DNA of 64,000 nucleotides from Candidatus Hadarchaeota archaeon (GCA_964343275.1 CAYFIY010000001.1:49683-113682), one strand, 5' to 3'; positions 11,595 to 59,757 are shown, counted from the stretch's first letter. Notes: generated by a model not told the origin, from the sequence alone. Numbers and translations: made by a program.

Positions 11595-11873
11595 ATGATA
11601 ATACCTAAAAAAATTAGAACGTATTGTCCATCTTGCAGGAAGCATAGCGAGCACAACGTTACTCAGTTGAAGAAGAGATCAGCTCGTCCCCTCAGTTGGG
11701 GCCAGCGCCAGTTTGCGAGAGTCACCGCAGGCTACGGCAGCCAGCCAAGATCAGAACAGAAGAAGTTCTCCAAGGCATCTAAAAAAATAGTCTTAATGCT
11801 GAAATGCAAAGTATGTAAGAAATCTCATCCTCGCAAGGGTTTCAGGAGCAAAGGCGTGAAGTTCGGGGAATGA
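11595..11873 (+). CDS. rpl44e: 50S ribosomal protein L44e
   Basis: MIIPKKIRTYCPSCRKHSEH...LKCKVCKKS zinc-ribbon L44e signature. Confidence 0.9.
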   Translation: MIIPKKIRTYCPSCRKHSEHNVTQLKKRSARPLSWGQRQFARVTAGYGSQPRSEQKKFSKASKKIVLMLKCKVCKKSHPRKGFRSKGVKFGE

Positions 11874-15103: not shown

Positions 15104-15277
15104 ATGGAAGTGGAACTAGATCATTGCATTAGATGTGGCGCCTGTGTTAGTGTGTGTCCCTTCGACGCGATAGAGGCCACCGACGGCTACGTACGGCCTA
15201 ACTCCAGGTGCACGGATTGTGGCTTATGCGTTAGAATTTGTCCTTTTGGGGCGATAATCATTGAGAAAAAAATATGA
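15104..15277 (+). CDS. 2x[4Fe-4S] ferredoxin (57 aa; not in supplied ORF track)
   Basis: MEVELDHCIRCGACVSVCPFDAI...CTDCGLCVRICPFGAI: two CxxCxxCxxxCP motifs; 3' end overlaps the GGR start. Confidence 0.8.
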   Translation: MEVELDHCIRCGACVSVCPFDAIEATDGYVRPNSRCTDCGLCVRICPFGAIIIEKKI

Positions 15278-24212: not shown

Positions 24213-26306
24213 TTATTTTGCCGATTCAGCCTTTTCTGCGGAGTTTTTCCCCCAGTTGGATTTGCTCGAACAATCAGGATCGATGCACATTCGATATGGT
24301 CTCACTCTTATACGGTTTACCTGAATCATGGGGGCTCCGCACTGTTCACAGATCTTACCCGGTGAGATAATCATTCCGGATTGGGGCAGTGGGAAGGAGT
24401 TGGTGCACTGCGGGTAGTTAGAGCACCCCGCGAAGCGCTTGCGAGTGGCCCGCGAGACGACTAATTTTAGATCACCGCCGCACTTCGTACACTTACCCAT
24501 GATGCGCTGTTTCTGTCGGGTGACGCGATAGGCCTTGCCCAGCTGCTTGCCTATCTCGAGCTGGTGCGCCCTGAACTTCTCCAGGATTTTATCGAGTTCC
24601 TTTCTCGCTTTTTCGATGACTTCTTCTTTGTCGCGTTTTCCACCCTGAATCGCCTCCATCTCGCGCTCGAACTGCGCTGTAAGCTCCTCACCCACTATCT
24701 CAGGGCAGTGTTTGAGGAGGGAGTCGATGACTTCGATTCCCAAATCGGTGACGGTTATCTGGTTGCCGAAAATGTATCCACGCATGTAAATGTTTTGTAG
24801 GAGATTGGCACGCGTGGCCTTGGTTCCTAAATTTCTCGATTCCATCTCCTTCACGATTGAGGAGGGATTGTAGCGGGATGGTGGTTGGGTCTCCTTTTTC
24901 ACTAACCTCACTTCATTCGTCTCGAGTTCTTGCCCCTTGCTCAGCTGCGGCAGGATTATCTCCTCCGTGGCTCCGTATCTGTCGTAGTAGTCGAGCCATC
25001 CCTCCTCAAGAACGCGCCTCCCTCTCAGGAGGAAAGGTTCTCCCCCAACGTCGATCTCGACCCGCACGCTCTCCACAAGCGCCGACTTCCCGAAGACCGA
25101 AAAGAAACGCCGGACGATCAGATCATAAAGCTTATTCTGTGGGCTCACGAGCTTCTTTGGTTTTTCGCCAGTTGGAAAAATAGCGGGGTGTGCAGGGTCA
25201 ATTTTCTTGCCCTCATTTGGTCGCAGCTTAGGCATGGCGAGCAGTTCATCAGCTATTATTTTATATTGATTCGAGAGGCCACCAAGTTGCCCGATGATCT
25301 TGGCGTAGTTTATCGTTGGAGGTAGTTTCTGGCTGCTGGTTCGGGGATAACTGATGAGGGCCGCCTGGTAAAGAAGCTGCGCTATCTGCTGAGTCCGCAT
25401 CGGGGTGTAGCCAAAGCAGCGATACGCCGCGGATTGTAAAAGTCCGAGGTTGAACGGTATTGGTGGAGGGCGACGGTACCGGCTGGTTTGAATCGTCGAG
25501 ACTTTTACGGGTTTGTTCTTAGCTGCGGCGAGCGCCTGCTCGGCTTTTGAATTATCGAGAAAACGTGACGTGACGTGTTCGGCAACAACTTCCATGCCAT
25601 CGAGTTTGAGGGGTAAACTCAAAACCCAAAATGGTTCTGGCTTGAAAGCTTTGATCTCACGTTCGCGTTCGACTAGTATTTTTAAGGTTGGGGTCTGTAC
25701 CCGTCCCGCGGAGAGCTTCGCGAAACGTTTCTGTGTTTCCTCGACGGCCGCGCTCATCGCCTTTGAAATATTCATGCCCCAGTACCAGTCGAGCACATGG
25801 CGGGCGACGCCAGCATCGATGAGCTCGAAATCGAGGCGTGGCATCAGCTGCTCGTAGGCCCGCTGGAGGTCATGCGCGGTGAGTGTGGAGAACTTCATTC
25901 GTCGAGCTCGCTTCACCGATTCCCGGCCGCAGAGGTAGCGCAGCACATTAAATGCGATGACCGATCCTTCGACATCATAATCGCAGGCGCTGATGTAGCT
26001 GCTCGCGTCCTTAGCCAGCTCGCGGATGGCCTCGACGAAAACACGGGTGCGCTTAGCCTTTCTGTTGGCCTTGTACGACGGAACCCAGCCGACATCGTAA
26101 ACGGGGTAATCGCGCATGGGCTTTAGGTTTTTCAAGGTGAAGAGGTGCCCCAGCGCCGGGACGACTACTATCCGCCCGCCGTCGCGCTCGAACCCATAGT
26201 AAGGGACGCCTTTGAACTTACCCCTTTTCAGCCGCTTCGTCGCGAGGGCTTCGGCTATTTTTACAGCGGAAGTCGGCTTTTCGCAAATTATAAGTGTCTT
26301 GGGCAT
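24213..26306 (-). CDS. topA: DNA topoisomerase, type IA (Topo I/III) with C-terminal zinc ribbons
   Basis: TOPRIM start LIICEKPTSAVKIAEAL, toprim acidic loop, C-terminal CTKCGG...CSNYPQC and CEQCG ribbons; 697 aa. Confidence 0.8.
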   Translation of the reverse strand: MPKTLIICEKPTSAVKIAEALATKRLKRGKFKGVPYYGFERDGGRIVVVPALGHLFTLKNLKPMRDYPVYDVGWVPSYKANRKAKRTRVFVEAIRELAKDASSYISACDYDVEGSVIAFNVLRYLCGRESVKRARRMKFSTLTAHDLQRAYEQLMPRLDFELIDAGVARHVLDWYWGMNISKAMSAAVEETQKRFAKLSAGRVQTPTLKILVEREREIKAFKPEPFWVLSLPLKLDGMEVVAEHVTSRFLDNSKAEQALAAAKNKPVKVSTIQTSRYRRPPPIPFNLGLLQSAAYRCFGYTPMRTQQIAQLLYQAALISYPRTSSQKLPPTINYAKIIGQLGGLSNQYKIIADELLAMPKLRPNEGKKIDPAHPAIFPTGEKPKKLVSPQNKLYDLIVRRFFSVFGKSALVESVRVEIDVGGEPFLLRGRRVLEEGWLDYYDRYGATEEIILPQLSKGQELETNEVRLVKKETQPPSRYNPSSIVKEMESRNLGTKATRANLLQNIYMRGYIFGNQITVTDLGIEVIDSLLKHCPEIVGEELTAQFEREMEAIQGGKRDKEEVIEKARKELDKILEKFRAHQLEIGKQLGKAYRVTRQKQRIMGKCTKCGGDLKLVVSRATRKRFAGCSNYPQCTNSFPLPQSGMIISPGKICEQCGAPMIQVNRIRVRPYRMCIDPDCSSKSNWGKNSAEKAESAK

Positions 26307-26389
26307 CCTGACCTAGTTAATTTTGTTTACTGCTAAATAGAAGTTGATGCCCATAAAGATTTCAAACTTTTATCCTTTCACGGATAGAA

Positions 26390-26700
26390 TTAGTTCGCAA
26401 TGAAGGGACAAACCCGTGGTAATCGAGAGCTGACGTGATCAGTGAGCGTCGGTGCATCGCTGCGGTAACACTCGAGCAGGTTCACCGATAAACACGCCAA
26501 AATTGGGTCCTTCGGGGAGTTATTGGCGGGATCGTCTAATACAATGACCATGAAGCCAACCCTGGTGTGACACAGGTGGGCATGGCCTCCGAGGAAACCC
26601 GCCATCGAGGGTTAGTGAGCGAAGTACGTCGAAAGACAGTCGATGATGCTCGCTGGTTAGTTGTGTCGGGGACATCGGGGGCCTAACTTTTTCACCGAGC
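26390..26700. ncRNA. candidate structured non-coding RNA, class unresolved
   Basis: About 55% GC island in an AT-rich divergent intergenic spacer; no credible ORF; multiple local hairpins and an enclosing helix (UCGAG...CUCGA). Confidence 0.4.
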
Positions 26701-26781: not shown

Positions 26782-27333
26782 TTGGGGAAAGATTCTAGGT
26801 TTAAAATTGAAAAGGAAAGACCACTGGTTTATCTCTACACCGGTGAGGGCGGAGGAAAAACAACCAACGCCTTTGGCTTTGCGCTTAGGGCGATCGGACA
26901 TGGATATAAGGTCATCATAGTGCAGTTCATGAAAGGCAGGGATGACATAGGAGAAGTTAAAGCCTGTAGACGGCTTGCGCCGGAGTGCGAGGTGCATCAG
27001 TTTGGCCGCAAAGATTTCGTGGACCCTACGAACCCAAACACTGGGGATAGGAAGCTGGCCCATGATGCAATGAAATTTGCACGAAGGGCGCTCAAAAAAA
27101 ATCCAGAGCTTCTTATACTGGACGAGGTAAACTTGGCCACTGCTTTTGGTTTGGTCGAGGTGGGAGAGGTGCTCGATCTTTTGAACGAGGCTCCTATGTC
27201 TACAGTGGTTATGCTCACGGGGCGGAGGGCTCCAAGGGCCCTCATCGAAAGAGCGGACTTCGTCTCCGTGATAGACGATATCAAGCATCCGGACAGAGAA
27301 GGCATCCCTGCGACAAAAGGCATTGAATATTAG
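26782..27333 (+). CDS. cobO: cob(I)yrinic acid a,c-diamide adenosyltransferase (CobO/CobA/BtuR type)
   Basis: LVYLYTGEGGGKTTNAFGFALRAIGHGYKVIIVQFMKG P-loop signature of CobA family. Confidence 0.85.
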   Translation: MGKDSRFKIEKERPLVYLYTGEGGGKTTNAFGFALRAIGHGYKVIIVQFMKGRDDIGEVKACRRLAPECEVHQFGRKDFVDPTNPNTGDRKLAHDAMKFARRALKKNPELLILDEVNLATAFGLVEVGEVLDLLNEAPMSTVVMLTGRRAPRALIERADFVSVIDDIKHPDREGIPATKGIEY

Positions 27334-59652: not shown

Positions 59653-59757
59653 GGGCCCGTGGCCAAACCAGGATAAGGCGGCAAGTGGAAACACCCGCAA
59701 GCCTTCTATCCAATCGAGGATAGCTGCAGATCGTGGGTTCGAATCCCACCGGGCCCG
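59653..59757 (+). tRNA. intron-containing tRNA gene (105-nt precursor, intron about 30 nt); isotype unresolved, intron position apparently non-canonical
   Basis: Perfect acceptor GGGCCCG/CGGGCCC plus discriminator G; D-arm GCC-AAACCAGGATAA-GGC; T-arm GTGGG-TTCGAAT-CCCAC with variable AGATC; the 47-nt middle region contains hairpin CTATCC-AATCGA-GGATAG; no CCA encoded. Confidence 0.6.

Follow-up and report, generated by a model that had tools for sequence, protein, structure and literature searches.

The conserved GC-rich element that separates a topoisomerase gene from an adenosyltransferase gene in this Hadarchaeota genome is very probably a trans-acting, three-hairpin box H/ACA guide sRNA of ~295 nt and, to judge from its sequence, the Hadarchaeota orthologue of Pab40/Pf7/Pho40/Afu4. 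In kind it is ordinary, being a diverged copy of a guide RNA known from Pyrococcus and Archaeoglobus. What we observe in its support is conservation among relatives, a covarying structure, box and K-turn motifs at characteristic spacing, a weak and repeated similarity to the HgcG family, and guide strands whose complementarity to three ribosomal sites is the best in the rRNA searched; from these we infer expression, protein binding and pseudouridine formation.

The window (the whole 64-kb stretch of DNA analysed here) carries the element at 26396-26692 on the plus strand, where a GC-rich, non-coding and strongly structured segment holds up. G+C content is 53-57% over 26400-26700, compared with 32-40% in the spacers on either side, in line with the initial annotation of a GC-rich segment amid AT-rich spacers. 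Gene calls and domain matches also agree with its flanks of divergent topA and cobO. On one side, divergent from the element, lies a type IA topoisomerase gene (topA, 24213-26306, minus strand) whose 697-aa product has Toprim, Topoisom_bac and zinc ribbon domains in Pfam; on the other lies a CobA/CobO/BtuR adenosyltransferase gene (cobO, 26782-27333, plus strand). Identical copies of the window's topA protein occur on TARA and other marine metagenome contigs, and its closest named relatives belong to Candidatus Hodarchaeaceae, Hadarchaeum and Hadarchaeales. Some Hadarchaeota-like topA homologues (P0023, P0025, P0029 and P0110) are 1030-1215 aa long and contain intein/homing-endonuclease domains (PF14528, PF14890). 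The plus strand of the element folds with z = -2.5 relative to dinucleotide shuffles and the minus strand with z = -0.15; together with the covariation in nine homologues described below, this bears out a structured non-coding RNA. The features to which we refer, all on the plus strand, are as follows.

26363..26374, plus strand: putative promoter, a BRE/TATA-like block (CAAACTTTTATC) ~25 nt upstream of the RNA's conserved 5' end
26395..26407, plus strand: 5' leader (UCGC-AAUGAA-GGG), the 5' strand of outer helix O1 and a candidate for the bulged strand in a C/D-like K-turn
26414..26470, plus strand: hairpin 1, with lower stem 26414-26419/26460-26465 (CCGUGG/CUGCGG)
26420-26428, 26454-26459 and 26468-26470, plus strand: hairpin 1 5' guide (UAAUCGAGA), 3' guide (GCAUCG) and ACA
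26429-26435/26447-26453 and 26436-26446, plus strand: hairpin 1 upper stem and K-loop (UGA-UCAG-UGA-G)
26471..26479, plus strand: O1 3' strand (CUC-GA-GCAG), beginning directly after ACA 1
26480..26486, plus strand: O2 5' strand (GUUCACC), in a helix with compensatory changes in three of its seven pairs
26493..26574, plus strand: hairpin 2, with lower stem 26493-26498/26564-26569 (CACGCC/GGUGUG)
26499-26509, 26556-26563 and 26572-26574, plus strand: hairpin 2 5' guide (AAAAUUGGGUC), 3' guide (CCAACCCU) and ACA
26510-26516/26548-26555, plus strand: hairpin 2 upper stem, with one bulged A
26517-26518, 26543-26547 and 26519-26542, plus strand: hairpin 2 K-turn (GA and AAU-GA) and apical stem-loop
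26575..26581, plus strand: O2 3' strand (GGUGGGC), beginning directly after ACA 2
26584..26592, plus strand: O3 5' strand (GGCCUCCGA), in a 9-bp helix
26598..26674, plus strand: hairpin 3, with lower stem 26598-26601/26667-26670 (CCCG/CGGG)
26602-26613, 26655-26666 and 26672-26674, plus strand: hairpin 3 5' guide (CCAUCGAGGGUU), 3' guide (GGUUAGUUGUGU) and ACA
26614-26620/26648-26654, plus strand: hairpin 3 upper stem
26621-26647, plus strand: hairpin 3 K-turn-like apex (GA ... GAUGA-U with a GAAA-capped stem)
26675..26683, plus strand: O3 3' strand (UCGGGGGCC), beginning directly after ACA 3
26688..26692, plus strand: T5 run, likely an archaeal transcription stop

An AAnTTTTA block is kept at the same distance from the 5' end in the aligned homologues, and its geometry, by analogy with archaeal promoters, suggests that 26363..26374 would act as the promoter. 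At the other end, the T5 run is read directly in the window's sequence and a TTT run stands at the same place in most homologues. Since ~25 nt separate AAnTTTTA from the conserved 5' end (GCAAUGAAGGG), with a T-run closing the 3' end, the element would form a free-standing transcript of ~295 nt, reaching from the conserved promoter to the T-run (~26396-26692, plus strand).

Homologues were sought at topA loci taken from one genome per species, where nhmmer found the element in six Hadarchaeota genomes (E = 2e-40 to 3e-61); a profile search added two further copies, L084 and L206, and the profile matches L004, L006, L009, L010, L011, L013, L084 and L206 at E = 1e-65 to 1e-92. The resulting alignment of nine homologous sequences, including that of the window, has a mean column identity of 81%, the adjacent topA proteins sharing only 61-75% identity with that of the window. 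Short indels (1-2 nt) recur among the nine, which rules out a conserved reading frame. Only two ORFs overlap the element, both on the minus strand (71 aa, 26390-26605; 51 aa, 26520-26675) and neither with a Pfam match, so that the initial annotation was right to see no credible ORF. These two ORFs, and a 90-aa ORF annotated over the L084 homologue, are what could be cited in favour of a small protein gene or the remains of a decayed coding sequence; the ORFs fall on different strands in different genomes and lack Pfam matches, the indels break the frame, and substitutions are pairwise compensatory, all of which makes a coding origin exceedingly improbable. In L084, the public annotation of the contig (GCA_038874375.1, JAVZCM010000046.1) has a hypothetical protein of 90 aa that coincides with the RNA homologue at L084:695-967; this ORF and the window's 71- and 51-aa ORFs are probably spurious. 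Elsewhere in the window, two other GC-rich, ORF-poor segments, 11596-11850 and 15107-15265, proved to be small protein genes and not RNAs, encoding by translation an eL42-like zinc-ribbon ribosomal protein and a 4Fe-4S ferredoxin, respectively.

The neighbourhood of the RNA varies between genomes in a way that bears on a second reading, namely that the element is a cis-acting leader or riboswitch of cobO, for instance one that senses corrinoids. The arrangement in the window invites this idea: the RNA and cobO point the same way, with ~90 nt between the end of the one and the start of the other. However, cobO adjoins the RNA in only three of the nine genomes and is co-oriented with it in the window alone; it is convergent with the RNA in L013 (2576-3076) and L206 (3808-4317) and inverted in the window, so that the layout with the RNA upstream of cobO is lineage-specific. 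Among the six other genomes that have a gene 3' of the RNA, that gene is convergent in five, and it is cobO in two. The neighbour is RNase HII in L010, the RNA sits between a PF01877 gene and nrdD in L084, and in L009 and L011 it is 3 kb away from topA. In addition, the window's RNA is followed by a T-run before cobO, and no cobalamin riboswitch model (RF00174, RF01482, RF01689) matches the element at E <= 10, as the initial annotation had anticipated in setting a cobalamin riboswitch aside; its broader suggestion of a regulatory or leader RNA finds no support in the orientation of the downstream genes. A leader function for cobO is therefore highly improbable. Synteny with topA is itself loose, since L205 (the closest topA relative, 82% identity) and L208-L211 have no copy of the RNA beside topA. 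Variable neighbours and a downstream gene that is usually convergent are as expected of a free-standing RNA gene.

Three domains were predicted with RNAalifold and then refined to a model of 69 pairs, which was counted on the alignment. In the nine sequences, 95.9% of cells form standard pairs, and 17 of the 69 pairs have changes on both sides, a number reached in none of 500 shuffles; when the 3' partners were slid by 1-3 columns as a control, pairing fell to 36-43%. The many conserved G-U pairs identify the plus strand as the RNA strand. All six hairpin stems are 90-100% paired in the nine sequences and five of them contain compensatory changes, the upper stem of hairpin 1 varying only via G-U intermediates. 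Covariation and conservation are thus both present in the relatives (17 compensatory pairs, 81% identity, nine sequences). Most of the individual helices that had been picked out by eye in the initial annotation are another matter: GGG-ACAAA-CCC, CUGA/UCAG, UCGAG/CUCGA, GUCC-UUCG-GGAC and CCUG/CAGG are either specific to the window or contradicted by changes in relatives. In L009 and L011, for example, a GGGG to GAGA change breaks the local GUCC-UUCG-GGAC hairpin and is compensated in the distant CCAUGAAG strand (pairs 140:172 and 138:175). A pairing that RNAalifold predicted between the two guide strands of hairpin 3 was set aside because there is no covariation there, and a bulge-helix-bulge processing motif at the linkers was considered and dismissed by eye.

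Each of the three domains has the organisation of an archaeal H/ACA unit. None of the 27 ACA instances varies, and the box lies 2 nt after the lower stem (1 nt in hairpin 3). In hairpin 1, both stems pair in every cell and A-U/G-C/G-U exchange is seen at 36:83 and 53:71, while guides and ACA are invariant across the nine sequences. Hairpin 2 has compensatory changes at 117:192, 136:177, 137:176, 140:172 and 144:165. In hairpin 3 they affect two of the four lower-stem pairs and four of the seven upper-stem pairs, the upper stem being altered by compensation in almost every genome. Across the RNA, the pocket strands are the most conserved parts and the stems covary, which is the pattern expected of a guide RNA. 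A tandem GA...GA caps every upper stem, and these dinucleotides are invariant except for two variants in hairpin 3. By sequence pattern, the caps read as a K-loop in hairpin 1 (U-GA-loop-U-GA-N), a canonical K-turn in hairpin 2 (GA / C-stem / NAU-GA) and a K-turn-like apex in hairpin 3 (GA ... GAU-GA-N). The distance from the ACA to the first target-pairing nucleotide of the 3' guide is 14 nt in all three (GCAUC in hairpin 1, AACCC in hairpin 2 and UAGUUGUG in hairpin 3, the last in its U1917 register), matching the 14-15 nt between ANA box and target uridine that experiments in Pyrococcus abyssi established (Muller et al. 2008, PMC2377435). The upper stems appear somewhat longer than in Pyrococcus, insofar as the end of the pocket can be placed without the substrate: hairpin 1 has 7 bp closed by a G.U, hairpin 2 has 7 bp and one bulge, and hairpin 3 has 6-8 bp, compared with the 5-6 bp of the Pyrococcus rule for the upper stem (H2) between pocket and K-turn (PMC2377435).

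Which RNA family these units belong to is indicated by weak signals that recur between genomes. At Rfam gathering thresholds the whole window returns three tRNAs and nothing on the element. Two of the window's tRNA genes, at 617-704 and 59653-59757, contain introns; one is a tRNA-Tyr with a 15-nt insert, and the other has a 41-nt insert, an Rfam score of 42.9 bits and no ARAGORN call. With all families searched at E <= 10 and lax filters on 600 nt around the element, the sole family to match is HgcG (RF00064). Three independent sequences hit it, the window with 19.3 bits, L013 with 30.8 bits (E = 9e-5) and L084 with 22.4 bits, the last match spanning the full length; all three scores lie far below the RF00064 gathering score of 77 bits. 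RF00064 is the three-motif H/ACA sRNA known as Pab40 in P. abyssi, Pf7 in P. furiosus, Pho40, and Afu4 in A. fulgidus. The same search speaks to the idea of a highly diverged RNase P RNA or SRP RNA, which would account for the ~300-nt length, the high G+C content and the housekeeping-like conservation, and which could draw on the fact that Rfam finds neither RNA elsewhere in the 64-kb window. The window, however, is a small part of the genome. No RNase P or SRP model matches the 600 nt at E <= 10 with lax filters, and the covarying structure consists of three ACA-ended hairpins, with neither a P4 pseudoknot core nor an Alu/S-domain rod. Either identity is extremely unlikely. Of the initial annotation's proposal that the element is a divergent known RNA, then, the general part stands, in that it is a diverged member of a known family of HgcG-type H/ACA RNAs, and the particular candidates, SRP RNA and RNase P RNA, fall away.

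Covariance-model alignment places hairpin 1 on Pab40 motif 1 and hairpin 3 on motif 3, and the element and HgcG have in common the guides GGGUUAG (motif 3, 5' guide) and AACCCU (motif 2, 3' guide). The element resembles Pab40, Pf7, Pho40 and Afu4 in carrying three H/ACA motifs in the same order on one transcript of ~280-300 nt, and its three best target sites equal the published ones. It shares with Pab40 the core of the motif 1 5' guide, CGAG(G)A, with a UGA...UGA K-loop, and a motif 3 3' guide that begins UGUUA/GUUAG. In contrast to Pab40, its motif 2 has a different 5' half, with a true K-turn and an apical stem-loop, the 3' strand of hairpin 3 is 2 nt longer, and the 5' guide of hairpin 1 is one G shorter in eight of the nine sequences (AUCGAGA in eight genomes; UCGAGGA, as in Pab40, in L010). 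Helices O1-O3 are missing from the Pab40 Rfam consensus, and the element has in addition a conserved AAUGAAGGG leader. The hosts differ as well, Hadarchaeota as opposed to Thermococcales and Archaeoglobales. Other P. abyssi guides (Pab21, Pab35, Pab91, Pab105, Pab160 and Pab19) have the same unit architecture, with an ANA box, the 14-15-nt distance and a K-turn or K-loop for L7Ae, but they have their own guides and targets, contain one or two motifs, and give no Rfam match on the element. The likeness extends in chemistry and pocket logic to the eukaryotic box H/ACA snoRNAs for the equivalent 25S/28S sites, although the eukaryotic guides are two-hairpin H-box/ACA-box RNAs that lack K-turns and use Nhp2 in place of L7Ae. 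Our literature search found no paper on H/ACA RNAs in Hadarchaeota.

Targets were predicted on the complete rRNA operon of a Natrialba magadii plasmid (16S and 23S, 808 uridines), which is haloarchaeal and so heterologous to Hadarchaeota, with E. coli rrnH used for numbering. Free scans with loose pocket boundaries and G-U pairs at equal weight were dominated by noise and missed the known Pab40 sites even when the Rfam consensus supplied the guides; they were therefore replaced by a scan anchored on the ACA distance. In this final scan, the uridine ranked first of 808 for hairpin 1 is U2527 (E. coli 2496; UGC-U-AC-CUCGAU, 3+6 bp), with a 3' guide pairing that is putative on N. magadii. For hairpin 2 it is U2617 (E. 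coli U2586; GGGUU-U-A-GACC, 5+4 bp), and for hairpin 3 it is U1953, followed by U1951 (E. coli U1917 and U1915; GUAACUA-U-G-ACCCUC, 7+6 bp). The U1917 register of hairpin 3 has 8+6 possible pairs at 14 nt from the ACA, and the Pab40-like U1915 register has 4+6 pairs at 16-17 nt.

These positions can be compared with the sites already assigned to the family. Pab40 motif 1 has been assigned to P. abyssi 23S 2588 and motif 3 to 2016, and motif 2 of Afu4, Pf7 and Pho40 has been argued to target the equivalent of 2678, a position that carries pseudouridine in Haloarcula, Halobacterium, fly and mouse; in the large rRNA of eukaryotes, 2016 and 2588 are conserved as pseudouridines (Muller et al. 2008, PMC2377435). 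The Pab35 sites 2549, 2672 and 2697 are the sites of E. coli RluE, RluC and RluB (PMC2377435), from which we deduce an offset of 92 between P. abyssi and E. coli numbering, so that 2588 and 2678 would correspond to E. coli 2496 and 2586. P. abyssi 2016 is the helix 69 site. The best uridine of each hairpin is thus the site published for the matching Pab40/Pf7/Afu4 motif, and three coincidences, each at rank 1 of 808, are very unlikely to have arisen by chance (roughly 1e-8 to 1e-9). Taken on their own, the duplex scores are modest, being no higher than the best that shuffled guides reach somewhere in ~11 kb, and for this reason it is the agreement with sites assigned beforehand that carries the argument. 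Where the registers depart from Pab40, the structure accounts for the shift: the 2 nt added to the 3' strand of hairpin 3 move the 14-nt register from U1915 to U1917, and AUCGAGA in hairpin 1 leaves a U-N-N instead of a U-N gap in eight of the nine sequences. A U-N-N gap can be functional and is tolerated by Pab19 (PMC2377435).

We also looked for Hadarchaeota rRNA in the available sequence. There is no rRNA within 10 kb past either end of the window. L012:5012-5699 (JAVZGN010000026.1) holds the first ~690 nt of a Hadarchaeales 16S gene, ~2.8 kb downstream of topA, and as this contig runs to 10,982 nt it should carry the 23S gene; L084, its sister contig, ends before the rRNA. A protein search with translated 16S ORFs returned one contig with 16S only and no 23S. 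A metagenome scan with GATGCN{2,4}CTCGATGTCGG gave, among the matches listed, unrelated GC-rich bacterial coding sequences and no rRNA, and is uninformative for or against the target prediction for hairpin 1.

An arrangement that the Pab40 model lacks is the set of outer helices, which join each ACA directly to a paired strand and may or may not accommodate Cbf5, a point against the guide reading. In O1, the leader GCAAUGAAGGG is nearly invariant in the nine sequences, pairs 14:99 and 15:98 are invariant, and variation between G-C and G-U occurs within GGG/CYN. O3 is almost invariant, with 94.8% of cells paired and no compensatory change. There is some support for the view that the element is a K-turn-rich structural or chaperone RNA of H/ACA ancestry that has lost its guiding function and might instead assist rRNA folding or bind L7Ae, the outer helices locking its ACAs in internal loops: O1-O3 begin right after each ACA, O2 covaries, the duplexes that the guides form with the test rRNA are short, and the upper stems appear to exceed the Pyrococcus rule. 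Nevertheless, conservation is highest in the pocket strands, which remain complementary to exactly the three target sites of the family, and the invariant ACA and 14-nt spacing are hard to explain without a guide function. We consider such a loss of guiding unlikely, and retain the H/ACA guide reading.

The pattern of O1, with UGC|AAU|GA|A|GGG opposite CUC|GA|GCA, invites comparison with a box C/D K-turn (RUGAUGA/CUGA). The leader AAUGAAG stands opposite YNGA-GC (CUGA in L013 and L010), and as a pattern it has the canonical stem, the 3-nt bulge and the tandem G.A pairs. On the other hand, the element has no C'/D' boxes or methylation guide, and its D-like strand is one nucleotide short. O1 may form a C/D-like K-turn. 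Pab21, another H/ACA sRNA, bears an attached C/D-box motif (PMC2377435). More tentatively, and with less than even confidence, the Hadarchaeota RNA could represent a distinct multi-hairpin H/ACA architecture, in which helices clamp the ACAs, the ACAs lie in internal loops, and a fourth K-turn, of C/D-like form, is made by the leader and the first linker. In that case the scaffold would be closed, the RNP would have to be built on it or reshape it, one more L7Ae would bind, and the clamps could be a thermostabilising or assembly-controlling device that has not been described for Pab40-type RNAs.

With the guide reading, a working mechanism can be proposed. The sRNA would be transcribed from its own plus-strand promoter. 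By analogy with archaeal H/ACA RNPs, L7Ae would bind each hairpin at its K-loop or K-turn, and Cbf5-Nop10-Gar1 would bind the lower stem and the ACA box. The strands of each internal loop would then pair with 23S rRNA on both sides of a uridine 14-15 nt from the ACA, which Cbf5, acting as in known archaeal complexes, would turn into pseudouridine. Hairpin 1 is predicted to target the U at E. coli position 2496, where helix 89 meets the peptidyl-transferase loop; hairpin 2 would target U2586 in the peptidyl-transferase loop; and hairpin 3 would target U1917, and possibly also U1915, in the loop of helix 69.

If this assignment is correct, it explains what a conserved but unannotated RNA gene does in a phylum of archaea that is almost entirely uncultured; at least one public assembly mis-annotates this gene as a hypothetical protein. 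A guide for three sites, in helix 69 and the peptidyl-transferase centre, would have an earlier origin and a wider distribution than is apparent from the Thermococcales and Archaeoglobales sequences used for the Rfam model, and RF00064 would be too narrow to detect the Hadarchaeota copies. The model makes concrete predictions for Hadarchaeota 23S rRNA, namely three pseudouridines and the bases to be expected along the 3' strand of helix 89. Finally, the clamping helices and the register shifts, from U1915 to U1917 and from a UN to a UNN gap, would serve as natural experiments on the rules that govern archaeal H/ACA RNPs.
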